DNA of 64,000 nucleotides, taken from NCBI GenBank assembly GCA_964631145.1, contig CAZVXT010000003.1, forward strand, positions 2,750 through 66,749, given 5' to 3'. The notes under the pieces were generated by a model that had not been told where the DNA came from, made no database searches, and worked only from the letters and a program-made list of their open reading frames with translations. Position numbers and translations under genes: made by a program. Below are positions 2,700 to 61,764 of this stretch, piece after piece (within the stretch, counting starts at the first letter, position 1; every line of letters starts with the position of its first letter). Source of the DNA: an uncultured Candidatus Saccharibacteria bacterium. Its GTDB lineage: Bacteria; Patescibacteriota; Doudnabacteria; UBA920.

Positions 2700-4244
2700 A
2701 TGTTATTAATTTATATTGCTATTGGATTAGCGGTTGGCGCTCTAATTGGATATTTTGGTCGCCAAACATTGATTTCCAAAAAAGTAGCTGGTGCAGAAAG
2801 AAATGCAGAGCGAATTTTGGAAGATGCAAAAAATAAAGAGAAAGAAGTTTTAATCGAAGCTAAAGCTAGAGCTTTAGAAATAACCGAATCTGCTAAAAAA
2901 GCAGAAGCGGATTTCCGGGCGCAAATTGTACGCTTTGAAGAGCGTATTGATCGCCGTGAAAAAGATTTGGACGTAAAAACTTCTCAGTTAGAGAAGCGAA
3001 ATAGTGAAGTCGAGCAAGAAAAGAAGGATTTACAAATTGCTCGAGACGAAGTTAAAGAGCTTAGAGCTAAGCAATTAGAAAACTTGCAAAAAATTGCTGC
3101 TATGACAAAGGAAGAAGCGGCAAAAGTTTTGTTAGATAATACAGAAAAGCAAATTAAAGAAGAAATGCTTGGATTGCACCGTAAGTTAATTGCGGAGGCT
3201 CATGAGACAGCAGACAAAGAAGCTCGCAAAATAGTTGCTCAAGCCATCGAACGCGTGGCAACTGAAGTTACTGCAGAAAGCACAACAACTACTGTTGATA
3301 TTCCTAACGAAGAAATGAAGGGTCGTATTATCGGAAAAGAAGGGCGTAATATTAGAACCTTTGAGCAGTTAATGGGTGTTGAAATTTTAATTGATGATAG
3401 TCCAGACTCTGTAGTTGTTTCTGGGTTTAATTCTATAAGACGTTACATTGCAAAGTTAACATTAGAAAAACTTTTACAAGATGGACGTATTCATCCTGCT
3501 CGCATTGAAGAAGGGTATGAAAAAAGCAAAGCTGAAGTTAACGAGCAAATTAAACGCGCTGGTGAAGATGCAGTTTACGAACTTGGTATTACATCATTTC
3601 CTCCAAAGCTTGTGCATCTGGTTGGGCGTTTAAAGTTTAGAACTTCATATGGACAAAACATTTTGCTTCACTCTGTAGAAATGGCAAAGATTGCATCTTT
3701 AATTGCAGAACAGCTTGGCGCTGATCAGCAGATAGTTAAGCAAGGTGCGCTTCTTCACGATATTGGTAAAGCGCTTGATCAAGATATGGAAGGAACTCAT
3801 GTGGAAATTGGTCGTCGTATTGCCGAGAAGTTTGGATTAGATGAAAAAGTTATTGAAGCTATCGAATCTCATCACCACGACACTGATGTGGCTGAGCATT
3901 CTACTCATCGTCAGCCATTATCTGTAGAGGCTATGATTGTAGATGCTGCGGATGGTATTTCTGGTTCTCGTCCTGGAGCTCGTAAAGACAGCTTTGAAAA
4001 TTATGTAAAGCGCTTAACAGATCTCGAAACTATTGCCAATTCCTTTGAAGGCGTAGAAAAGACTTATGCAATTCAGGGTGGTAGAGAACTTCGAGTTTTC
4101 GTAACTCCAACTGTGCTTGATGATTATGCTTGTCAAAAACTTGCTCGTAGTATTGCTAATCGTTTGCAGAATGAGCTTAAATTTCCTGGTGAAATTAGAG
4201 TTCAGGTAATTCGCGACTTTAGAGTAATCGAGTACGCAAGATAA
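2700..4244 (+). CDS. rny: Ribonuclease Y.
   Basis: N-terminal TM helix, coiled coil, KH domain (GRIIGKEGRNIR) and HD domain (LLHDIGK); 514 aa. Confidence 0.9.
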   Translation: MLLIYIAIGLAVGALIGYFGRQTLISKKVAGAERNAERILEDAKNKEKEVLIEAKARALEITESAKKAEADFRAQIVRFEERIDRREKDLDVKTSQLEKRNSEVEQEKKDLQIARDEVKELRAKQLENLQKIAAMTKEEAAKVLLDNTEKQIKEEMLGLHRKLIAEAHETADKEARKIVAQAIERVATEVTAESTTTTVDIPNEEMKGRIIGKEGRNIRTFEQLMGVEILIDDSPDSVVVSGFNSIRRYIAKLTLEKLLQDGRIHPARIEEGYEKSKAEVNEQIKRAGEDAVYELGITSFPPKLVHLVGRLKFRTSYGQNILLHSVEMAKIASLIAEQLGADQQIVKQGALLHDIGKALDQDMEGTHVEIGRRIAEKFGLDEKVIEAIESHHHDTDVAEHSTHRQPLSVEAMIVDAADGISGSRPGARKDSFENYVKRLTDLETIANSFEGVEKTYAIQGGRELRVFVTPTVLDDYACQKLARSIANRLQNELKFPGEIRVQVIRDFRVIEYAR

Positions 4245-5140: not shown

Positions 5141-5540
5141 TTGTGTAATTGTTATAATTGGTATTAGCAAGAAGTGCTTTTTAGTTTTAAAATTTATTTA
5201 TTGTAGAGCAACATAGTAAAGTTCATAAACCATCAGTTGTTGATTACTATTAATTATATTTATAGTTTTTGCTAGTTGGATAGGATTATTTTTTCTTCCT
5301 TTAGAAAACTGGCAATACGATGGTGTGATATTATACGCTGTTCCTTTATTTTGAGGCTTGGTATTTTATTTATTTGGAAGATATAAAGGGTGGGATAAGC
5401 CTTTGCATTCTTTATTGAAATATTTTTTGATATTGTTTATGTTAGCAGTCTCAATATGTATTATGCTTATTATATTTACTATTTTCTTTGCTATTTTGGG
5501 ATTATTTCACACTTCTTCTTACGGAGGTTTTATATAAAAT

Positions 5541-6351
5541 TATGACTAAAATATTGATAATCGGGGATATCATGGGTAAGCCAGGACGACTAGGTTTGCA
5601 AAAGATTATCCCAGAACTAAAAACTGAATACTCTCCAGATGTAATGCTGGCAAATGTAGAAAATTTAACTCACGGCAAAGGTATAATTGAAAAGCATATT
5701 ATAGAATTAAATAATTTGGGATTTGATGCTTATACTTCCGGTAATCACGTTTTTGATAGCGGTCCGCATGCAGAAGATTGCTTTGATAAATTTCCGCAAA
5801 TTATTCGCCCTGCTAATTATACCGGAATCAATAAACATCTTCCTGGATCTGGCTATTACCGTTTTGCCAAAAATGGACAGCAATTTTTGGTGATAAATCT
5901 GTCTGGACAGGTATTTATGAATGGTAAAGATAAATTTGAAATCACTAATGCATTTTTTGAATTTGATAAAATCTATCAAGATCAAGCCAGTAAAGATGAT
6001 ATAATTATTGTAGATTTGCATGCGGAGGCAACTAGCGAAAAACAAGCTCTTGCTTGGTATATTGATGGGCGCGCTCATGTTTTGTATGGTACTCATACCC
6101 ATGTTCCAACTAACGATGCAAAGATTTTGCCTAAGGGCTTGGCTACTCAAACTGATGTAGGGATGACAGGCGATCGAGATTCTGTGATAGGTGTGATTCC
6201 GGACAGTGCTTTAGTTTTATATTTACAAAACGCAAAACCAAAATTAGATATTGTAGAAGCCGGAATCGCAGTGGTTAATGCATTATATGTAGAAATAGAA
6301 AACGGACGTGCGACCAACACGAAAATTATACAAAAAGAAATAGAAGTTTAA
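5541..6351 (+). CDS. ymdB: YmdB-family metallophosphoesterase (2',3'-cyclic-nucleotide phosphodiesterase-like).
   Basis: MTKILIIGDIMGKPGR N-terminus and metallophosphatase motifs. The ORF-track start at 5488 is an N-terminal over-extension. Confidence 0.75.
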
Positions 6352-13808: not shown

Positions 13809-13860
13809 ATTCAAAAAACAACTCAGATTGTTTATAATAAGGTATAGTCAGAGTATAAAA

Positions 13861-14490
13861 ATGTTTGATAAAAATAACTTTACAATTGTTGATGTGGAAA
13901 CAACTGGAGCAAATGCCTATTTTGGTCGGGTTATTGAAATTGGCTTGCTAAGGGTAGAAAAAGGAGAAGTTGTAGAAACATATCAAACTTTATTAAATCC
14001 AGATCAACCTCTCCCAGAGTTTATTACAAAGATAACAGGGATAGAAGATTATGAGCTTATCAATCAGCCAAGATTTGAAGATATTGCTGAAGATTTGTTG
14101 GCTAAGTTTGAAGATGCGATATTTGTAGCTCATAATGCACAGTTTGATTATAGTTTTTTGAAGGAAGAGTTTAGAAGGGTCGGGCTGGCTTTTAATCTGG
14201 ATAGGTTGTGTACCGTAAAATTATCACGAGCTGTTTTTAAAAATTATAAGCGGCATAACTTAACTGAAATTATCGAGCGCCATGGCTTTATTTGTGAAAA
14301 TCGTCATCGTGCTTTTGATGATGCAAAGGTCTTATGGGATTTGATGCAGTTAATCCAAAAAGAAACAGAACCGCAGGCATTGCAAAAAATATACACTCAA
14401 TTGCTCACAAAAAGCCGTACCAAGAAAAAGGTAAATACAACAAATGAACTTACTTACGAAACTGATTCCGGAGAAATCATAGAAATATAA
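13861..14490 (+). CDS. DnaQ-like 3'-5' exonuclease (DNA polymerase III epsilon family).
   Basis: Exo I FTIVDVETTG, Exo II HNAQFDYSFL, Exo III HRAFDDA. Start trimmed to MFDKNNF. Confidence 0.8.
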   Translation: MFDKNNFTIVDVETTGANAYFGRVIEIGLLRVEKGEVVETYQTLLNPDQPLPEFITKITGIEDYELINQPRFEDIAEDLLAKFEDAIFVAHNAQFDYSFLKEEFRRVGLAFNLDRLCTVKLSRAVFKNYKRHNLTEIIERHGFICENRHRAFDDAKVLWDLMQLIQKETEPQALQKIYTQLLTKSRTKKKVNTTNELTYETDSGEIIEI

Positions 14491-16058: not shown

Positions 16059-16088
16059 AAATGCCAAGAATATTCTTGGCATTAATTT

Positions 16089-16502
16089 TTAGCAGTTGGC
16101 TGCTAATGATATCTCCGTTAAGTTTTCAATTGATAATTCAATGTCAATAAGCGCAGTGTTTTTGGTTTTTACAAAGTTGGCTTCTATGATCAAATGTGGG
16201 TTTATATCTTTTACAAATTCTATATCATCCCATAAGGTAAAACCTAGATTTATTCTATAAAATGTATAAAAGAATTTTTCTTGATCTAAGACCAAAATTT
16301 GACCGTGAACATAGTCGGCAGTAATAGCTTCATTTTCAATAATATATTGATAATAGTCTGGGCGACAGAGTATGAGCTTGTATTGCTGACTGCCAAACTT
16401 ATATAGTAAGTCTGACCAGCGAACTTTATTTTTTAGCTTGCATTGCAAGCTTAACCAGGTTTTTATTAGCTTTGAATTATTGATGTAATAATAGAGTTGC
16501 AT
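16089..16502 (-). CDS. Hypothetical protein.
   Basis: ORF only. Confidence 0.35.
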   Translation of the reverse strand: MQLYYYINNSKLIKTWLSLQCKLKNKVRWSDLLYKFGSQQYKLILCRPDYYQYIIENEAITADYVHGQILVLDQEKFFYTFYRINLGFTLWDDIEFVKDINPHLIIEANFVKTKNTALIDIELSIENLTEISLAANC

Positions 16503-16569
16503 GTTTCCTCCAAAACAATTTAGAAAAATATTGTATCTTACTCTCAGTATTTTGACAATGCCAAAATAA

Positions 16570-16595
16570 AAAACTGCTTTTCATAAAGCAGTGTG
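16570..16595 (-). terminator. Rho-independent terminator for the minus-strand gene 16600..17046.
   Basis: On the minus strand: actgcttt-atgaaa-agcagt followed by a T-run. Confidence 0.55.
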
Positions 16596-17695: not shown

Positions 17696-19156
<1,461 letters not shown>

Positions 19157-19167
<11 letters not shown>

Positions 19168-19377: not shown

Positions 19378-20343
19378 ATGTTTTTGGAAAATACCATAGA
19401 AACAAATACCAATGACGGAATTAAGCTTAACTCTGCTGGTGTCAAGTTAAGTGAATTACTTTCAGAGTTTCTGCAATATGCTCAGTACGAACTAATTTTT
19501 TCTACTCAAACACTTGCTAAATACAAGGAGTCGTTAGAATGGGTAATTCGGGACATTGGTGATATTGCCATAAATGAGTTAGATAGCAGTCATATTATAT
19601 TATTGAAGCAGAAAATTATGAACCGCGGTGCAGGAGAGTCTCGCGTTGCCTCAGTAGTTTTTGCTTTAAAAAGTTATTTAAAATTTATCAAAGAGTTTAA
19701 GCATTTAAAGGTTATGGACTATAAGAATATAAAGTCACCTAAGCGTAGTAGACGAGAGGTTATATTTTTAACTAATGAAGAAGTTCAGCAATTTATAGAT
19801 GCAATTAAAATTGACAACAAGTGTCGTAGAGGAAATAATAAGCAGCTTATAAATATGGATGGGTTAAGGTTTAGGGTCTTAGTCGAAGTTTTGCTAGGGA
19901 CAGGCATGCGCATCTCTGAAGCATTGAGTTTAAATGTTAGTAGTATAAACTTTGAAACATCTGAAGCGAAAATTATTGGTAAAGGTAATAAAGAGAGGGC
20001 TGTGTTTTTTAGCACCCGATGCTTAAAGTGGGTTAATTATTATTTAGAACAACGCTCGGATAATGAAGAGGCTTTATTTGTCACTAACCGTGGCACTCGT
20101 TTAAAGCGCGCAGATGTTAGTGGTTTCTTCCAGCGATATTCTAAGAAGGTTAACCTGTTAAAGAGAGTTACACCTCATATTTTACGTCACACCACTGCAA
20201 CCAACCTTTTGTTTAATGGTTGCCCTATTGTACATGTAAAAGAAATATTAGGTCATAATAGGCTAGAAACCACTTGTCGTTATTACTTAGGTGTAGATAA
20301 AAGAAGGGCAAAAGAAGCTCATGAGGCTTATTTAAGGTACTAA
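19378..20343 (+). CDS. Tyrosine recombinase / phage-type integrase.
   Basis: Box I TGMRISEAL; box II HILRHTTAT; catalytic LGHNRLETTCRYY tyrosine. Confidence 0.85.
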   Translation: MFLENTIETNTNDGIKLNSAGVKLSELLSEFLQYAQYELIFSTQTLAKYKESLEWVIRDIGDIAINELDSSHIILLKQKIMNRGAGESRVASVVFALKSYLKFIKEFKHLKVMDYKNIKSPKRSRREVIFLTNEEVQQFIDAIKIDNKCRRGNNKQLINMDGLRFRVLVEVLLGTGMRISEALSLNVSSINFETSEAKIIGKGNKERAVFFSTRCLKWVNYYLEQRSDNEEALFVTNRGTRLKRADVSGFFQRYSKKVNLLKRVTPHILRHTTATNLLFNGCPIVHVKEILGHNRLETTCRYYLGVDKRRAKEAHEAYLRY

Positions 20344-21644: not shown

Positions 21645-22844
21645 ATGACTGATGTAAAAATTAACCCAAATACTCTTTGCGTTTGTGGTAGTGAAAAAAA
21701 ATTTAAGTATTGTTGTAGATATAAATATGCTGCAACTAATTTTCGAGTTCCCCAAGTACCAGTAGAAGTAGTGCAGTATTTTGCCAAAAAGAACCAAGAG
21801 CTCGAAACAATGAAAGCAATGGGAATACATATAAACTATGTTCGCCCTATTGTGCATCAAGGTGGAAAAATGTGGGTATTGGGTGACTGTGTATACAAGG
21901 GTCAGATAGGTGAGACCTTCCATGAATTTATCATTGGTGTTTTAGGTAGTACTTTGGGTAATGAATGGCTGCAGGCTCAGTTTGCTTTGCCAGAAAGCGA
22001 AAGACATTATATTGCTACTAGCTTTATAAAGTTTGAAGAGTGGAAGGCGAAAAATATATCAGTAACAGAAATAGTTATTAATGGACGAGCACATGCTACA
22101 TCTGATGGATGGACTAAAACTTTACTTGCTTTAGCTTTTGATATTGCTAGCTTGCAGCATACATTGCAATTGCCCAATAGTTTATTAGAGCGCCTTAAAG
22201 GCAAAGACTCTTACCAGGGGGCTCGTTATGAAATTGCAATTGCTGCAATTTTTGCAAGACTGGGTTGTAAAATTGAGTTCTTGGATGATGCTTTTCCTGC
22301 TCATTTAAAACACTGTGAATTTATTGCTACTCACAATGAAACTGGGGTTAAGGTTGCTGTGGAAGCGAAAAGTCGCCATAGGGAAGGCGTGCTGAATACA
22401 GCTGGAGAACAAGACGCAGAAAAAATTGTTAAGGGGGATGTTCGCAAGCTTGTAAAAAATGCTATGAAGCAAAACCCGAATGATGTACCGTTCATGGTTT
22501 TTGTGGATGTAAATGTTCCCATAGATGGTGCAGAGACATCCTTTGACAAAAAGTGGGTGCAAGACGTAATGAGTTTTATGACTAAACAAATTTGTTCACA
22601 AGAAGACCCGTCACCACATAATGGAGTCTTCTTCACTAACTATTCATTTCATTACCAAAATGAAGATGATGCAGTGAATGGTGAGAATTTAAGTGTAGTC
22701 CCTCAATTCTCAAGGTTTCCGTTACCTAACCCCGAGTTTTCTAGTATGCTATCGGCTGCACTTAGATATTATGGTAACATTCCGAATTTAGATGTCGATG
22801 ACGACTTAGATGAGAATGGTCGCTTGCGAAGTAGTCCTAACTAG
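21645..22844 (+). CDS. SEC-C-motif protein with a putative PD-(D/E)xK nuclease-like core.
   Basis: N-terminal CVCGSEKKFKYCC (SEC-C zinc motif). Central FLDD ... VAVEAKSRH resembles a D ... ExK signature. Confidence 0.45.
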   Translation: MTDVKINPNTLCVCGSEKKFKYCCRYKYAATNFRVPQVPVEVVQYFAKKNQELETMKAMGIHINYVRPIVHQGGKMWVLGDCVYKGQIGETFHEFIIGVLGSTLGNEWLQAQFALPESERHYIATSFIKFEEWKAKNISVTEIVINGRAHATSDGWTKTLLALAFDIASLQHTLQLPNSLLERLKGKDSYQGARYEIAIAAIFARLGCKIEFLDDAFPAHLKHCEFIATHNETGVKVAVEAKSRHREGVLNTAGEQDAEKIVKGDVRKLVKNAMKQNPNDVPFMVFVDVNVPIDGAETSFDKKWVQDVMSFMTKQICSQEDPSPHNGVFFTNYSFHYQNEDDAVNGENLSVVPQFSRFPLPNPEFSSMLSAALRYYGNIPNLDVDDDLDENGRLRSSPN

Positions 22845-23030
22845 ATGCTATAATATTATTACAATTTAATTGCCTAAACCCACTGTGCAAGCATGGGCAT
22901 GGCAGTAAAACCTAAAGTATATAGAACCCTCGTCCAAGGGCTTACTTTAGGTAATACAGGGAAACTTGTATTGGTGTCGTAAGACATCTCTTGGCGGGGG
23001 CTTTGTGTTTTCCGTCAAAGAAAGGAAAAA

Positions 23031-27945: not shown

Positions 27946-28022
27946 TTTTTTATTCTGGTGGGCGTGCCAGGAATTGAACCTGGGACCTCGTCATTATCAG
28001 TGACGCGCTCTAACCAACTGAG
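27946..28022 (-). tRNA. tRNA-Ile(GAT) with encoded CCA.
   Basis: Minus-strand cloverleaf with anticodon loop CTGATAA and T-arm GGTTCAATTCC. Confidence 0.85.
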
Positions 28023-28081
28023 CTACACGCCCAAATTAGATACTTGGGTATTTTAGCAATAATATCAAAAAAAATCAACGG

Positions 28082-28405
28082 CTAATTTTGTGGCATTGCT
28101 ATACTGGCAGTTCCAAAATCAAGCACTCCTCCCATCCATAAAACTGCTAAAATCATAAAAGCCAATCCCAATAGCTTGTAAAAAGTATAAGTACCTCCAA
28201 AGGTAGGGGTTATATACTGTTCAGCAAAATCTAATTTACCACTTTGGTATGTTATCCATACTGAGTATTTCATCAATAAAAAGCCAATAACAATTAGAAT
28301 AGGTCCTAATATAAATCTCATACTATATATTATATCATTTGATTTTAAAATATTTTTGATTTTGAAACAGTTTACTAGCATTTTCGATATACATAGTATA
28401 AGCAT
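28082..28405 (-). CDS. Small membrane protein.
   Basis: Three hydrophobic helices. Confidence 0.4.
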   Translation of the reverse strand: MLILCISKMLVNCFKIKNILKSNDIIYSMRFILGPILIVIGFLLMKYSVWITYQSGKLDFAEQYITPTFGGTYTFYKLLGLAFMILAVLWMGGVLDFGTASIAMPQN

Positions 28406-28428
28406 TAATATAATAAGGAGCTAAAATT

Positions 28429-28611
28429 ATGGCAAAATATGGAAAAGCTGCTCAAAATAAAATTGAAAAAGTAATGCATGAATTTAAGAAAGGTGATTTA
28501 AAAAGTGGTCGTAGTGGTAAGACGGTAAAAAATCCTAAGCAGGCAGTGGCTATTGGTATTTCTGAAGCTAAAGAAATGGGTGCTAAAGTACCAAAGAAGA
28601 AAAAACAATAA
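28429..28611 (+). CDS. Small lysine-rich conserved protein.
   Basis: 60 aa; KQAVAIGISEAKEMG motif; Shine-Dalgarno AAGGAG upstream. Confidence 0.5.
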   Translation: MAKYGKAAQNKIEKVMHEFKKGDLKSGRSGKTVKNPKQAVAIGISEAKEMGAKVPKKKKQ

Positions 28612-28627
28612 ATACAATTTATAATAA

Positions 28628-28655
28628 AAAACCCGCCTAATGGCGGGTTTTTTTA
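28628..28655. terminator. Terminator.
   Basis: aacccgcc-taat-ggcgggtt followed by T7. Confidence 0.7.
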
Positions 28656-28731
28656 TGGTGGACCCCAGCGGACTCGAACCGCTCACCTCCTCGGTGCAAA
28701 CGAGGCGCTCTACCAGATGAGCTAGGGGCCC
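28656..28731 (-). tRNA. tRNA-Ala(TGC) with G3:U70 and encoded CCA.
   Basis: Minus-strand cloverleaf with anticodon loop TTTGCAC and G3:U70 in the acceptor stem. Confidence 0.85.
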
Positions 28732-48200: not shown

Positions 48201-48980
48201 ATGTATTATCAAGGGATATCAGATCAAAAATTTCGAGAAATTATAGCAAGTGTGTATCAATACAAGTGCCAATATTGCTTACGTGTTTTTAACATAAATA
48301 ATTTGCAAGTTGATCACATTTATCCAAAAAGTCTTGGTGGTCCGAATGAATTATTTAATTACACTTTGTCTTGTGATTGCTGTAATAGAATAAAATCAAA
48401 TCAAATTTTACATGAAGCAGCTCAAAATTTTTTACAAATGTGGGCAACTATAAAATCTAAAGATATTTTAACAAAGATTAATTTATTGCTAAAAGTTCCT
48501 ATATACTCAACTAAGGGTGTCAAGAAATCGAGCTATAAATCAAATAAATTTCCCAAAGGGAGTTTTTTAAATCCACATGCTTATGGTAATTGCCAATACT
48601 TTAACGATGGGTTAATGCAACGTAATCACGAAAATCACTTTCGTGTTTATAAAAAAATGATTTTGTCTGAGTTTAGTGTTGATAGTGGTAATAGTTCAAT
48701 ATTGATTTTAGAATCTAAAATAAATATTGAATATTTTTTAAATCATTTAGAAATAAATTTTCGAGAATTTATAGATTTTTTAAAATGGATCAAATCGACG
48801 TATGTGAAACTTAAGGACGGAGAAATTGAAGCTTTATGTTTAAGAAATAAAATTACTTACAATCAAAAAGTTAAGGAGTTCTCAACCATCAAGATGGGTT
48901 ATATAGAGAGTATTCATATCGAGCTAAATTATATAAGTAGAATTTGGGCAAATAACTTTTTTGCAAGTATCCCAAATTAA
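48201..48980 (+). CDS. HNH endonuclease-domain protein.
   Basis: CQYC ... DHIYPKSLGG ... N ... CDCCNRIK (HNH with two CxxC pairs); an uncharacterised C-terminal half follows. Confidence 0.7.
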   Translation: MYYQGISDQKFREIIASVYQYKCQYCLRVFNINNLQVDHIYPKSLGGPNELFNYTLSCDCCNRIKSNQILHEAAQNFLQMWATIKSKDILTKINLLLKVPIYSTKGVKKSSYKSNKFPKGSFLNPHAYGNCQYFNDGLMQRNHENHFRVYKKMILSEFSVDSGNSSILILESKINIEYFLNHLEINFREFIDFLKWIKSTYVKLKDGEIEALCLRNKITYNQKVKEFSTIKMGYIESIHIELNYISRIWANNFFASIPN

Positions 48981-49022: not shown

Positions 49023-49068
49023 TTTTTAAAAATCTTGAAATTTTCATAAATTTTCTTAAAAAACTCTT

Positions 49069-49098
49069 GACAAACCCTAAAACCTTGGTTATTATGAT
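49069..49098 (+). promoter_or_regulatory. Consensus sigma70 promoter, candidate 23S-5S promoter.
   Basis: TTGACA, 17-nt spacer, TATTAT. Confidence 0.5.
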
Positions 49099-50242
49099 TT
49101 TACGTTTAAACATTGACAACTTCGCAACAAATATGTCAAAAAACTATTTATTTTTAAATAACATGCGGCTCGTATAACTAGCTTATTTAAGTTGTATCGA
49201 GAACCGCTAATCTGCGGTTTTTTTGTTGCCAAGTCACATTAACAATTTGCCTCTATATATTTACTGCTCTCAGGTTGCTCAGCCATTCCATTATAACCTA
49301 GGGAAACAGGCCAGATGTCACACCGATATTAAGAGCAGTAGCTATATGGCGGTAAAGCAATAGCTTTATAGCCAAGTACATTAAAAACTAAATAGTGGTA
49401 ATTTATTCTCGCATTCAACCGGCGAGAATAAGTACTGTAAGTTTAATCTAAAAAGAACAAGACAAACATTGATCTTACTTATTTAAAGTAAGTTTAAAGA
49501 AAACCCAAAGCAGTTTGTTCATCATGTAAATGGTGTTTACAAATTGCTTGTCAAAATATCTGTGTAATCAAATTTGTTTACAAATTTGTGATTAAAACAG
49601 AGAAGGGTATATGGTGGATGCCTTGGTATTATGAGCCGATGAAGGACGCAGTTGCCGGCGATACGCTTCGGGTAGGTGGCAAACAACCTTTGATCCGAAG
49701 ATTTCCGAATGGGGAAACCCATGCATTTGAAGAATGCATGCCTTTGTGCCGTGGGGTACATTGAGCGGGAACCATGCGAAGTGAAACATCTCAGTAGCAT
49801 GAGGAAAAGAAAGAAAGTTGTCGTTAGACAATTCGATTCCCTTAGTAGTGGCGAGCGAAAGGGGAGCAATATAAATATTTATTGACTGCTTATTTACAAT
49901 TCATTTTTATGAAAAGTAAGATATGCAAGTAGTCAATAAATATTTATTAGCCCAAACTTAATTTGTGTTGTTTTCTGGACTAGTTTACTAGAAAGGAAAA
50001 CTTAAAGCTTACTGGCGTTGCAAGTTAAGCGTAATAAGAGAGGACATTGTAGAGCAGTAACTCTACAGAGGAATTTAAGTGTGCTATGTAGCAGAACAAG
50101 CCTGGAAAGGCAGACCAAAGAGGGTGATAGTCCCGTATAGCGAAACATCATACCGTTCCTGATCTTTATCTTGAGTACGTCCAGACACGAGAAATCTGGA
50201 CTGAAGTAACGTAGACTAATACGTAAGGCTAAATACTCATAA

Positions 50243-50283
<41 letters not shown>

Positions 50284-50915
50284 CACCCCGGAAGGGGAAT
50301 GAAATAGTCTCTGAAACCATATACTTACAAGGAGTGGAAGACCTAGGGCTCGCAAGAGATTCCAGGTTAACCGCGTGCCTATTGAAGAATGATCCAACGA
50401 GTTAGTTATATGCGGCTTAACTAAGTGTTATCAAACACGAAGTTGTAGTGAAAGCGAGGATTAATAGTCCGTATTAAGTTATATTCAGTTTTCGGCTTTT
50501 GCTGGATACTGAATATAATCTTAAATGTCGCATGTGCTAGACCCGAAACCCGAGTGAGCTACCCATGGCCAGGATGAACGTTGTGTAAAAGCAACGGGAG
50601 GTCCGAACCCACTAATGTTGCAAAATTAGGGGATGAGCTGTGGGTCGAAGAGAAATTCTAATCGAACCGGGTGATAGCTGGTTCTCCTCGAAATAACTTT
50701 AGGGTTAGCGTCACATGTTCTCTCCAGAGGTAGAGCACTGAATCGATCTCCGGTGCGCAAGCGTCGGATTCGAACCAAACTCCGAATTCTGAGAGATAAA
50801 TAGTGTGGCAGTTAGTCTATCGGCTCTAAGGTCGATCAGACGAATGGAGAAGAATCCACACCGCCGTTTAAGGTCCCCAAATCCTAGCTATAGTGCAAAG
50901 GATGTGGGATTGCTC

Positions 50916-50952
<37 letters not shown>

Positions 50953-51674
50953 TAAAGAAAGCGTAACAGCTCACTGGTCAAGCGATCCTGCGCCGACAAT
51001 ATATAGGGGCTAAGCTAGGTACCGAAGACGCGGGTTGCATAGTAATTTATTATTATGCAGCGGTAGAGGAGTGTTGTGTACAGGCTGAAGCCGGACTCGT
51101 AAGAGCCGGTGGACAGTACACAAGTAAGAATGTTGGAATAAGTAATATATATAGGGGTGAGAATCCCCTTCGCCGAATATCCAAGGTTTCCTGGGCAACG
51201 ATCGTCGTCCCAGGGTTAGTCGATCCTAAGAGCCGGCCTCAAGAGGTCGGTCCGATGGAAAACAGGGTTGATATTCCCTGACCAACTATGCGTTATCCAA
51301 GGCGGGACGCATCATGGTAGTTTGAGCGTACTGTGAGTATGTACGTCGTTGTATCCGTAGGGAGAAACTCTAGGTAAATCCGGAGTTTCAAAGTTAGCTG
51401 GCTTTCGCAAGAAAGTTAGCTAGTTGTAATCTCGAAGATATGAAGAAAGTTCGCAAGGACAATTCGAATGAACCAAGGTGCCAAGAAAAGCGTCGTGGTT
51501 ACGCGTGTAGCTGTCCGTACCGCAAACCGACACAGGTGGATGAGGAGAGAATCCTAAGGCGTCCGGATCAATGTTCGTTAAGGAACTCGGCAATACAGCA
51601 GGTGTACCTTCGGTATATACCTCGCCTGTTTGCATGCTGGGTAATAGATTTTTATATCAAAAAAAGTTTTGTAC

Positions 51675-51745
51675 GGAGTGGTAGCTTAGTGGTAAAGCGC
51701 TAGCTTTCAACTTAGAATACGAAGGTTCGAATCCTTCCTACTCCG
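51675..51745 (+). tRNA. tRNA-like element 1. It has a Glu-type CTTTCAA loop but a mispaired anticodon stem.
   Basis: Acceptor ggagtgg pairs with ctactcc (one G-U); D-arm gctt-agtggta-aagc; T-arm gaagg-TTCGAAT-ccttc. Only two to three of five anticodon-stem pairs form. Confidence 0.45.
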
Positions 51746-51895
51746 TCAAAATCATATGGGGTACAACTTATAAAAAACTTTTCAAGTTTTTAAGCTTATG
51801 GCACTTAAATGTCTGTTCGTCAGATAGTTTTCAAAATTATTTTGAAGACAAGTGTTAATTCACGCATTTAAGCAAGTAAGTATCCCGCCAATTTC

Positions 51896-51968
51896 GCGGC
51901 AATAGCTCAGCTGGAAGAGCGCTTAGCGTTCCGCTAAGAGGTCGTAGGTTCAAGTCCTACTTTCCGCT
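51896..51968 (+). tRNA. tRNA-like element 2. Ala-like body; anticodon loop CGTTCCG has G at position 33 and C at position 37.
   Basis: TAGCTCAGCTGGAAGAGCG D-arm; stem cttag pairs with ctaag; T-arm gtagg-TTCAAGT-cctac; acceptor has one C-U mismatch. Confidence 0.45.
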
Positions 51969-52037
51969 TTGGAAACATACTGGTTGTTTAAAAAGTTTGA
52001 CCGACTTGCATAATGAACAATTTGTTTCCATTCAATT

Positions 52038-52110
52038 CGGGTTGTAGCTCAACCAGGTAGAGTATTAGCCTTGGTGGCTAAAGTTATAGGTTCAAATCCT
52101 ATCAACCCGA
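52038..52110 (+). tRNA. tRNA-like element 3. Anticodon loop CTTGGTG (TGG, Pro-like) with U at position 37.
   Basis: Perfect acceptor stem cgggttg/caacccg; anticodon stem ttagc/gctaa; T-arm atagg-TTCAAAT-cctat. Confidence 0.5.
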
Positions 52111-52114
52111 TTTT

Positions 52115-52188
52115 TCCGCGGTATATCAATTGGTAGATTGTGCGATACGTACATCGCAAGGTTCTAGGTTCGATTCCTAGTCGCGGAG
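52115..52188 (+). tRNA. tRNA-like element 4 with an 8-nt anticodon loop (TACGTACA).
   Basis: Acceptor tccgcgg pairs with tcgcgga (one G-U); T-arm ctagg-TTCGATT-cctag; anticodon stem tgcga pairs with tcgca. Confidence 0.45.
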
Positions 52189-53095
52189 TTGAAGAGGTTA
52201 ATAAACCGTTAAATTAAATTTTGGCGAATTTCAAAAATTTAGCTTCTTCATTCAATTAAAAAATGATGTAAAACTATTCTCGATTGTATTTTAATCGAGT
52301 CTATTACCCAGCATGTTAAACAGGCCGCAGCGAAAGACCTCTCCCGACTGTTTATCAAAAACTTAGGTCCGTGCTAAAGCGCAAGCTGATGTATACGGGC
52401 TGATGCCTGGCCAGTGTCAGAAGGTCAAACCCCTTGGGGCAACCTCGGGGGCCAAGCCCTGATGAACGCCGGCGGTAACTATAACCGTCCTATGGTAGCG
52501 AAATTCCTTGTCGCGTAAGTTGCGACCCGCACGAATGGCATAACGAGTAGAGGACTGTCTTAACGAACACTCCGATGAACTTACAGTGGCGGTAAAGATG
52601 CCGTCTACCCGCAGCAAGACGGAAAGACCCTATGAAGCTTTACTATAGCGTGCTATTGAAATAATGTTTTCATTGTTTAGTATAGGTGGGAGACTTTGAT
52701 GCTAACGCGCCAGCGTTAGCGGAGTCGAAATGTGAAATACCACCCTGTGAATGTGTTGTTTCTAACTAACTCTTAACCTAAGTTAGGACAGTGGCTCGTG
52801 GGTAGTTTAACTGGGGCGGTTGCCTCCTAAATGGTAACGGAGGCGTTTATTAAGGTAGGCTAGGCGCGGATGGAAATCGCGCTGGTAGTGCAAACGCATA
52901 AGCCTGCTTGACTGCAAGAGTGGCGACTCGCGCAGGTGGGAAACCAGAAGTTAGTGATCCGATGCGTTCGAGTGGAAGACGCAAAGCCCAACGGATAAAA
53001 GTTACTCTAGGGATAACAGGCTGATCTTCTCCAAGAGTCCATATCGACGAGAAGGTTTGGCACCTCGATGTCGGCTCATCACGTCCTGGGGGTGA

Positions 53096-53132
<37 letters not shown>

Positions 53133-53631
53133 TGGTACGCGAGCTGGGTTCAAAACGTCGTGAGACAGTTTGGTCCTTATCTGCTGTGGGTGTACGAAAT
53201 TTGAGTGGTCACATCTCTAGTACGAGAGGACCGAGATGTATCGACCTCTGGTGTACCCGTTGTTCCTTCAGGAGCACGGCGGGGTAGCTAGGTCGAGTTT
53301 AGATAAGCGCTGAAAGCATATAAGCGCGAAGCTGTCCACAAGACTAGATTTCGTTGAGACTTCGGTCTCGAAAGGTTCGCAGGAGACTACTGCGTATTTC
53401 AATCAAAATAATTTTTTTGAAGGGCTTGCCTGGATAAAAAATTGTAGCGATTTTATAGGTTGCAGGTGTAAGGATAGTAATATCTTCAGCCGAGCAATAC
53501 TAATCAACCGAAAGTTTTAATCTTTATTACACTTTTGACAAGCAATTTGTGAATTGTTTATAGTACTTTTTAATTATCACTATCAGTTTTTAATAAATGC
53601 CCTCGGGCTTAAATCTTTATAGATAGAGATT

Positions 53632-53748
53632 TGGGCTGGGTGGCATTTACGGTGTGGTCCGACCTGATCCCATCTCGAACTCAGAAGTCAAACGCGCTCG
53701 TGCCGATGATAGTCTGGTGCATGCCAGTGCAAAAGTAGGTAGCTGCCC
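53632..53748 (+). rRNA. rrf: 5S ribosomal RNA.
   Basis: ...GGTGTGGTCCGACCTGATCCCATCTCGAACTCAGAAGTCAAACG ... GTAGGTAGCTGCCC. Confidence 0.88.
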
Positions 53749-53755
53749 TTATAAC

Positions 53756-61676: not shown

Positions 61677-61764
61677 TGGCGGAGAAGGGGGGATTCGAAC
61701 CCCCGAACCCTTGCGAGTTACTCGCTTTCCAAGCGAGCGCACTAGACCACTATGCGACCTCTCC
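61677..61764 (-). tRNA. tRNA-Ser(GGA) with a long variable arm and encoded CCA.
   Basis: Anticodon stem ctcgc/gcgag with loop TTGGAAA; T-arm ggggg-TTCGAAT-ccccc. Confidence 0.85.

Follow-up and report, generated by a model that had tools for sequence, protein, structure and literature searches.

Four tRNA-like elements with aberrant anticodon arms in a helix-63 insertion of a Patescibacteria 23S rRNA gene

RESULTS

A long insertion at the tip of helix 63

The analyzed window, a stretch of 64,000 nucleotides (nt) from contig CAZVXT010000003.1 of an uncultured Candidatus Saccharibacteria bacterium with a low GC content of about 30%, carries a 23S rRNA gene interrupted by a long insertion in which four tRNA-like elements lie on the same strand. 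Statements on the presence or absence of genes in this genome refer to these 64 kb. The rRNA genes are unlinked, with the 16S gene at 17699-19166, the 5S gene at 53636-53751, and the 23S gene as given in Table 1. The 23S gene has a length of 3935 nt compared to the 2925 positions of the bacterial model, an excess of about 1 kb. Alignment of sub-windows to the large subunit (LSU) rRNA model revealed an insertion of 684 nt replacing a 10-nt model loop. The loop is part of a hairpin located at about 1751-1777 of the model, directly after the CUUCGG hairpin of helix 62, which corresponds to the tip of helix 63 (H63). The initial annotation, made from the sequence alone, had described the 23S flanks AAGGAACTCGGCAA and GACTGTTTATCAAAAAC and had placed the insertion in helix 63; the flanks matched that description, and the placement was borne out by the LSU model alignment.

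Within the insertion, no match to the group I intron model Intron_gpI was obtained in Rfam even at E ≤ 1, and no open reading frame (ORF) of the LAGLIDADG or GIY-YIG type was present. The sole frame, of 87 amino acids (51440-51703), starts in the upstream 23S sequence. With neither ribozyme nor endonuclease ORF in the insertion, a group I intron with a homing endonuclease was ruled out. A strong promoter-like site is located upstream of the 23S gene at 49067-49095, and no plus-strand terminator-like site was found within the insertion. For the insertion as a whole, a folding energy of -240.8 kcal/mol was obtained (z = -10.45); both the closing stem and, in each of the four elements, the acceptor and T arms are present in the predicted fold.

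The four tRNA-like elements

The tRNA genes were detected using ARAGORN and the Rfam RF00005 covariance model (gathering score of 29). ARAGORN called four same-strand tRNA-like genes in the insertion, at 51674-51747 ("tc", 6-nt loop), 51896-51968 (UUC), 52037-52111 (UGG), and 52114-52189 ("cgta", 8-nt loop), whereas its calls in the remaining 63 kb were limited to three tRNA genes. The four same-strand elements of the initial annotation were thus all found by ARAGORN and three of them by RF00005, and its statements on the T-arm sequences and on the spacing of 4 nt that separates element 3 from element 4 were confirmed. With E values of 1e-8 to 1e-11 for the whole window, chance matches were excluded in Rfam, and the scores of elements 1 to 3 fall within the range of the ordinary tRNAs of the window (56.9-77 bits). 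Element 4 is below the RF00005 threshold, its sole Rfam match being a sub-threshold tRNA-Sec with 22.4 bits and an E value of 0.07. The four cloverleaves sit between two parts of one 23S gene.

The stems of the elements are largely intact, with 81 of 84 stem pairs standard over the four elements and canonical T-loops in each of them. The anticodon arms, by the covariance alignments and the ARAGORN folds, are non-standard in all four, and none combines the canonical loop length of 7 nt with U33 and a purine 37. In element 1, the loop is UUUCAA (51705-51710), accompanied by a C31.C39 mismatch or bulge and an A3-U70 pair. Element 2 has the loop CGUUCCG (51927-51933) with G33 and C37, and the mismatch C5.U68 in the acceptor stem. 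Element 3 exhibits perfect stems, the loop CUUGGUG (52070-52076) with the anticodon UGG and U37, and the features C1-G72, A73, G35, and G36. Element 4, a degenerate cloverleaf, has a D stem of 3 bp and, at 52146-52153, the 8-nt loop UACGUACA with A33. The aberrant anticodon arms, proposed previously from hand folding, were therefore corroborated by both programs, and the covariance check, which had been named as a possible refutation, did not fold the four elements as fully canonical tRNAs. For element 3, the earlier remark on U37 holds; otherwise, it is a nearly normal tRNA-Pro, in which only U37 and the absent CCA are odd.

None of the four nested elements encodes a CCA end, in contrast to all three ordinary tRNAs of the window and all nine nested tRNAs of relatives (Fisher exact p of about 5e-4). 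Element 1 is followed by GTCA, where TCA is one substitution away from CCA, and the triplets after the discriminator in elements 2 to 4 are without trace of CCA. The ordinary tRNAs, Ala (28656-28731), Ile (27956-28032), and Ser (61677-61764), each possess a standard loop, an own promoter-like site and an encoded CCA; the genes for Ala and Ile also have a terminator hairpin. The features of the insertion are listed in Table 1.

Table 1 Coordinates of the 23S rRNA gene and of the parts of its helix-63 insertion in the 64-kb window
Feature	Coordinates	Strand	Details
23S rRNA gene	49590-53524	+	Rfam RF02541 (LSU_rRNA_bacteria), 2268 bits, model positions 1-2925
Closing stem, 5' arm	51624-51648	+	GCCTGTTT-G-CATGCTGGGTAATAGA; inverted repeat I1
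Leader	51649-51674	+	Contains AAAAAAAGTTTTGTAC; motif AAAGTTTTGT also before nested tRNAs (L022, L023, L007, and L015 compared)
Element 1	51675-51745	+	RF00005, 63.6 bits, deletion in anticodon stem; ARAGORN "tc"
Spacer 1	51746-51895	+	Hairpins; no ORF, no similarity to other loci
Element 2	51896-51968	+	RF00005, 51.6 bits, loop unaligned to model; ARAGORN
Spacer 2	51969-52037	+	13-bp hairpin 51970-51982 / 52018-52030 (inverted repeat I5; fold)
Element 3	52038-52110	+	RF00005, 63.5 bits; ARAGORN; perfect stems
Element 4	52115-52188	+	tRNA-Sec, 22.4 bits only; ARAGORN "cgta"; covariance model R1 match 52115-52188
3' spacer	52189-52299	+	Hairpins
Closing stem, 3' arm	52300-52325	+	TCTATTACCCAGCATG-TT-AAACAGGC; inverted repeat I1

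A conserved closing stem

The ends of the insertion pair as the initial annotation claimed, and 24 bp were counted in the closing stem, comprising a perfect core of 16 nt and 8 pairs across a 1x2 internal loop. The position at the H63 tip and the long closing stem support the proposed likeness to intervening sequences (IVSs) excised by RNase III. A common scaffold, GCC....(G)CATGCTGGGTnAATGG / CCATTnACCCAGCATG(nn)....GGC, was present in all Saccharibacteria-like insertions, and the same closing stem was carried by at least 10 independent Saccharibacteria-like assemblies. The Saccharibacteria-like label is based on L007, a Candidatus Saccharibacteria contig, and on synteny with type IV pilus genes; protein names led no further than the Patescibacteria group.

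Covariation of the closing stem was analyzed in nine loci. All 24 pairs were standard in each of the nine, and 9 pairs were changed on both sides in a compensatory manner. The observed covariation was reached by none of 500 shuffled controls, and in controls with slid arms the paired fraction fell to 26-44%. The central 10 bp (CATGCTGGGT/ACCCAGCATG, 51633-51642 / 52306-52315) were invariant in the nine loci while the flanking pairs covaried, which suggests a sequence-specific recognition site for a nuclease or a protein.

The arm sequence CATGCTGGGTAAT was found only at the two arms, without further copies within 64 kb, and the leader motif showed no enrichment elsewhere in the window. On both grounds, a multi-copy transposable element was rejected as far as these 64 kb show.

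Insertions and their cargo in related genomes

Related loci were collected by two approaches. In the pattern scan, GTDB genomes, metagenome contigs, and viral contigs were searched for a 23S motif with a T-loop 91-151 nt behind it, with an extra T placed before the 23S motif in the metagenome version; scans this narrow give no frequency of nested tRNAs. In the synteny sample, homologues of LigA together with the conserved order LysM-LigA-23S-5S-NTP_transferase led to ten further 23S loci, picked regardless of tRNAs. The 177-amino-acid ORF downstream of the 5S gene had no homologues, and its short-read contigs end at rRNA, which made it unsuitable for comparing loci.

The scan of GTDB genomes returned 14 loci, of which 2 are real nested cases. 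The other 12, tRNA-His of Actinomycetota among them, were dropped as chance matches, none of them lying inside a 23S gene. No locus with the 23S-motif and T-loop pattern was detected in the viral contigs. One real case is a Candidatus Saccharibacteria contig (L007) with tRNA-Ile(GAU) and tRNA-Gln(UUG), both with CCA. The other, from Candidatus Harrisonbacteria (L004), holds two nested tRNAs with A34 anticodons (AUA and AAA) and an unrelated H63 stem. The metagenome scan yielded tRNA-Ala(UGC) with G3:U70, CCA and an unusual C37 in L015, tRNA-Thr(GGU) with CCA in L017, and once again the Harrisonbacteria locus (L016, identical to L004). As the stem of Harrisonbacteria differs, at least two insertion lineages bear nested tRNAs at H63.

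In the synteny sample, an H63 insertion of 376-1338 nt was present in 8 of 10 loci. The remaining two, L029 and L032, have a short H63 hairpin, and the insertion is thus dispensable and sporadic, like known IVSs. Two of the insertions carry modules that resemble single elements of the window. In L022, a module with the 6-nt loop UUUCAG, CCA, and A3-U70 is similar to element 1. In L023, an 8-nt-loop CGUA module similar to element 4 is followed by a standard tRNA-Val(GAC). The closest relative, L021 (LigA 74% identical), has 705 nt between the anchor motifs, corresponding to an insertion of roughly 630 nt.

An additional covariance model, for which 15 tRNAs of the nested and the ordinary kind were combined, was applied to search for tRNA remnants. 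In the tRNA-free insertions of L019, L021, L024, L026, and L027, it found no degenerate tRNA remnants, and the idea that all insertions once had tRNAs is unsupported.

Outside the closing stem, similarity between the loci is limited to the tRNA modules. The same stem with tRNA-type cargo occurs in L007, L015, L017, L022, and L023. The array of the window is one case of a recurrent feature of Patescibacteria, in which a conserved H63 scaffold holds fast-changing cargo.

A different kind of cargo was noticed in L019, where a unit of about 97 nt with two GC-rich hairpins is repeated in at least four tandem copies (16069-16570), the array being broken by an assembly gap of N. The unit occurs once each in L021 (7320-7410) and L027 (16420-16500) and is absent from the window.

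The nested tRNAs at L017 1612-1687, L004 3396-3474, and L015 3149-3224 have in common the acceptor pairs A1-U72, G2-C71, and G3.U70, the last of which is the alanine identity pair. Two of them combine it with non-alanine anticodons, GGU ("Thr") in L017 and AAA ("Phe") in L004. If charged, these tRNAs would put alanine at Thr or Phe codons.

Likely ancestry of single elements

The element nearest to element 1 is the 6-nt-loop module of L022 (68% identity), with which it shares the leader motif (Table 1) and the loop UUUCAR and from which it differs by 6 compensatory pairs. The initial label of a Glu-type loop was rejected for element 1, as body and loop (UUU-CAA compared to UUUGCAN) are rather Ala-like; tentatively, the element can be derived from an Ala-type module minus G35 and G3:U70. 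Element 2 shares 83% identity with the tRNA-Val of L023 outside the anticodon arm, which has diverged, so that its body is Val-like and not Glu-like. Element 3 resembles a module of L007 (75%), and its C1-G72, A73, G35, and G36 make up the bacterial tRNA-Pro identity set. In element 4, the D arm (CAATTGGTAGA), the variable arm, and the T arm are tRNA-Trp-like, and a tentative derivation from tRNA-Trp is proposed.

Elements 3 and 4 together (52038-52188) matched the adjacent tRNA-Pro and tRNA-Trp genes of Vibrio phage VPp1 (KJ936628.1, 29707-29866) with 71% over 139 nt. This is probably similarity at the isotype level, though the common Pro-Trp adjacency is odd, and for the ancestry of element 4 the alignment is only a hint. 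A phage origin of the elements was rejected, because the similarity is of a generic tRNA level, with the VPp1 pair as the best match.

Other features of the window

A second insertion in the 23S gene was noticed in domain I, at model positions of about 275-300, where about 150 nt (49878-50027, approximately) and 25 nt (50047-50071, approximately) with a GC content of about 31% are added. The 16S and 23S genes are 30 kb apart, and an ORF for a tyrosine recombinase (Phage_integrase, 19378-20343) directly follows the 16S gene. Between 16S and 23S, on the opposite strand, lie tRNA-Ile(GAU) and tRNA-Ala(UGC) (27956-28731), which are normally spacer tRNAs. Just upstream of the 23S promoter, an ORF for an HNH endonuclease is located at 48201-48980 on the plus strand (Pfam HNH, E value of 1e-10), without counterpart at that position in the syntenic relatives. 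The 23S-5S spacer contains a strong promoter-like site at 53535-53564 (TTGACA-18-TATAGT, 11/12), as if specific for 5S. A LOOT RNA (RF03000) was matched at 22871-22988 on the plus strand with 80.2 bits (threshold of 46.4), directly 3' of an ORF without match in Pfam (21645-22844).

The window encodes RNase Y (2700-4244), YmdB (5488-6351), and an exonuclease of the RNase T family (13828-14490), a gene content that hints at an RNA-processing toolkit resembling that of Firmicutes; rnpB, rnz, and rnc do not lie within the window.

DISCUSSION

Processing of the insertion

We hold with moderate confidence that the four elements are tRNA-derived modules which have kept the shape recognizable by RNase P and RNase Z, have lost the features needed for decoding, and are cut from the pre-23S transcript, leaving the 23S rRNA split. 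The acceptor, D and T arms constitute the shape recognized by both enzymes. Decoding, on the other hand, requires a CCA end and an anticodon loop of 7 nt in which position 33 is U and position 37 a purine, and the elements are apparently non-decoding by their sequence. Processing of the insertion is likewise a prediction from sequence.

The insertion would be transcribed as part of the pre-23S RNA from the promoter-like site at 49067-49095, and the lack of a plus-strand terminator-like site within it is taken as support for read-through. RNase P would then cut the 5' end of each element, and RNase Z would cut after each discriminator, since tRNA precursors devoid of CCA are substrates of RNase Z in bacteria such as Bacillus subtilis. 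The long closing stem may serve either as a site for RNase III or as a clamp joining the two halves of the 23S rRNA. Two pieces of about 2.0 and 1.2 kb, divided at H63, would make up the mature 23S rRNA, and each cloverleaf would be set free as a non-decoding RNA of tRNA size. As to their origin, the modules most likely began as copies of ordinary tRNA genes that lodged in this internal spacer, as still seen intact in relatives and by the same logic that applies to tRNA genes between 16S and 23S.

Selection for shape or neutral decay

Several observations weigh against the proposed processing modules. In the synteny sample, 6 of 8 insertions are without any tRNA-like element, also when the dedicated covariance model is applied, and therefore the modules cannot be required for the handling of the insertion. 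The initial proposal that the elements act as processing signals is for this reason not supported as it was stated. Its alternative, tRNA genes captured in a mobile IVS, fits as well as the punctuation idea, given that relatives hold apparently intact, CCA-bearing tRNA genes. The insertion of the closest relative, L021, is also without tRNA, so that the array may be neutral cargo. That most related insertions are tRNA-free and that the cargo turns over quickly speak against a shape kept by selection. The assignments of ancestry are soft, resting on 67-83% identity between short tRNAs, and element 3 could be a working tRNA-Pro if a CCA-adding enzyme is available. Finally, with a view of 64 kb, the ordinary tRNAs for Glu, Pro, Trp, and Val as well as cca, rnc, and rnz may lie elsewhere in the genome.

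In another explanation, the elements are pure relics, i.e., tRNA copies decaying neutrally in a tolerant spacer, with cuts by RNase P and RNase Z incidental and nothing under selection. The fast turnover and usual absence of tRNA cargo, the tRNA-free insertion of L021, the sub-threshold Rfam match of element 4, the acceptor mismatch in element 2, and the missing CCA in all four speak for such decay. Neutral decay, however, does not readily account for the distribution of the defects, which fall mainly on the anticodon loop and the 3' end and leave 81 of 84 stem pairs and all T-loops intact. Three of the triplets after the discriminator show no trace of CCA and are seemingly randomized, unlike the stems, an argument which assumes ancestors with CCA. 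Moreover, the 6-nt-loop type recurs in L022, in a module like element 1 set apart by 6 compensatory pairs. We consider pure relics possible though rather unlikely, and the clustered defects, the intact stems and the recurrence of the 6-nt loop argue for a shape kept by selection.

Working tRNAs, a retained expansion, or an artifact

Some of the elements might instead be working tRNAs with unusual loops, expressed from within the rRNA gene, to which CCA is added enzymatically, most plausibly element 3 as tRNA-Pro(UGG), whose C1-G72, A73, G35, and G36 would suit this role. In line with it, elements 1 to 3 score 51-64 bits on RF00005, and the nested tRNAs of relatives for Ile (L007), Thr (L017), and Val (L023) have standard loops and CCA. 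This explanation is nevertheless improbable for the array. The G33 and C37 of element 2, the 6-nt loop of element 1, and the 8-nt loop with A33 of element 4 are, by general knowledge, incompatible with normal decoding; CCA is lacking in all four, yet it is encoded by every other tRNA gene seen in the lineage; and the body of element 2 is Val-like instead of Glu-like.

Retention of the insertion as a giant expansion segment of helix 63, a counterpart of the eukaryotic ES27L presenting tRNA-shaped domains on the ribosome surface, appears very improbable. ES27L occupies the same helix, and the invariant 10-bp core of the stem could be a binding site. Cloverleaves, several of them with CCA in relatives, are nonetheless substrates of the universal RNase P, and a structural role ill fits a cargo that contains tandem repeats, lacks a conserved interior, and varies in length between 0 and 1338 nt.

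An assembly chimera joining a tRNA cluster into the 23S gene, which the initial annotation had named as a possible refutation, is excluded in practice and of negligible probability: although rRNA genes are often misassembled in metagenomes and the short-read contigs of the same sample break at rRNA, perfectly complementary arms enclose the insertion and prolong H63 on both sides, NCBI, JGI, ENA, and Logan together supplied at least 10 independent assemblies in which the same stem holds other cargo, and two assemblies of the Harrisonbacteria locus, L004 and L016, are identical.

Beyond the excision of tRNA-derived modules as proposed above, the H63 insertion might be a dedicated site that releases tRNA-shaped RNAs in a 1:1 ratio with ribosomes, comprising both sole essential tRNAs and conserved mimics. 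We regard this as distinctly unlikely. It would imply that relatives keep sole essential tRNA genes there, e.g., Ile-GAU, Val-GAC, and Thr-GGU, and that the 6-nt-loop UUUCAR type (window and L022) and the 8-nt-loop CGUA type (window and L023) are the mimics. In trans, such mimics might, for example, divert anticodon nucleases or enzymes that bind tRNA, or they might play a part in interactions with the host cell. The G3:U70 tRNAs with Thr or Phe anticodons (L017 and L004) would then be candidates for deliberate mistranslation.

Significance and comparison with known systems

Genes for tRNAs and mimics of tRNAs have been found here within an rRNA gene, one of the most scrutinized kinds of genes in microbiology. 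Insertions in the rRNA genes of candidate-phyla-radiation bacteria were reportedly described by Brown et al. in 2015. In a later survey of rRNA genes of candidate phyla (Tsurumaki et al. 2024, PMC11270868), insertions of 500-1000 bp with no intron and no ORF were left unexplained, those of Saccharibacteria were mostly 250 bp or shorter, and the word tRNA occurs nowhere. Nested tRNAs are also unmentioned in a 2026 paper on tRNA introns of Patescibacteria and in a paper on rRNA operons of Saccharibacteria. The earlier remark that no bacterial 23S IVS with a tRNA-like array has been described agrees with our result, as none was found in the searchable literature.

Nested tRNA modules would explain part of the long insertions with no intron and no ORF reported in the candidate-phyla surveys. 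If the cloverleaves are excised, tRNA punctuation would exist in bacteria, together with a 23S rRNA split at helix 63. The series of modules from intact through aberrant-loop to absent offers natural material for studying tRNA capture, expression at the rRNA level and loss of decoding in tiny genomes. There are practical consequences, too: tRNA censuses and completeness estimates of such genomes may count or miss the nested genes, and pipelines that mask rRNA may conceal real tRNA genes.

In the eukaryotic expansion segment ES27L, the same helix H63 is extended to a similar length, but the segment stays on the ribosome, where it has a function, and tRNA-like domains are absent from it. The IVSs excised from 23S rRNA by RNase III in Salmonella, Campylobacter, Leptospira, Coxiella, and other bacteria likewise replace the tip of a variable helix, end in a long stem, occur sporadically among relatives, and have no intron ribozyme. 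Their classical sites are helices 9, 25, and 45 (PMC11270868 and general knowledge), in contrast to helix 63 here. They measure about 100-200 nt and carry no cargo or a small ORF, compared to insertions of 376-1338 nt with tRNA genes or cloverleaves, whose excision we infer. In the tRNA punctuation of animal mitochondria, the t-elements of plant mitochondria and the mascRNA of MALAT1, non-decoding cloverleaves direct cuts by RNase P and RNase Z between functional RNA segments, as the elements of the window would. Those systems are organellar or nuclear and their cleavage was demonstrated experimentally, whereas in the H63 insertions it is predicted, and most related insertions are without such elements. 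The tRNAs of the 16S-23S spacer, Ile-GAU and Ala-UGC, share a transcript with rRNA, from which they are freed through RNase P and 3' processing, and these same two tRNAs are found in the H63 insertion of relatives; here, the spacer lies within the 23S gene, and the four copies of the window are without standard loops or CCA. The components, namely, IVSs, spacer tRNAs, and tRNA punctuation, are thus all known, and their combination in a helix-63 insertion of a bacterial 23S rRNA gene appears to be undescribed.

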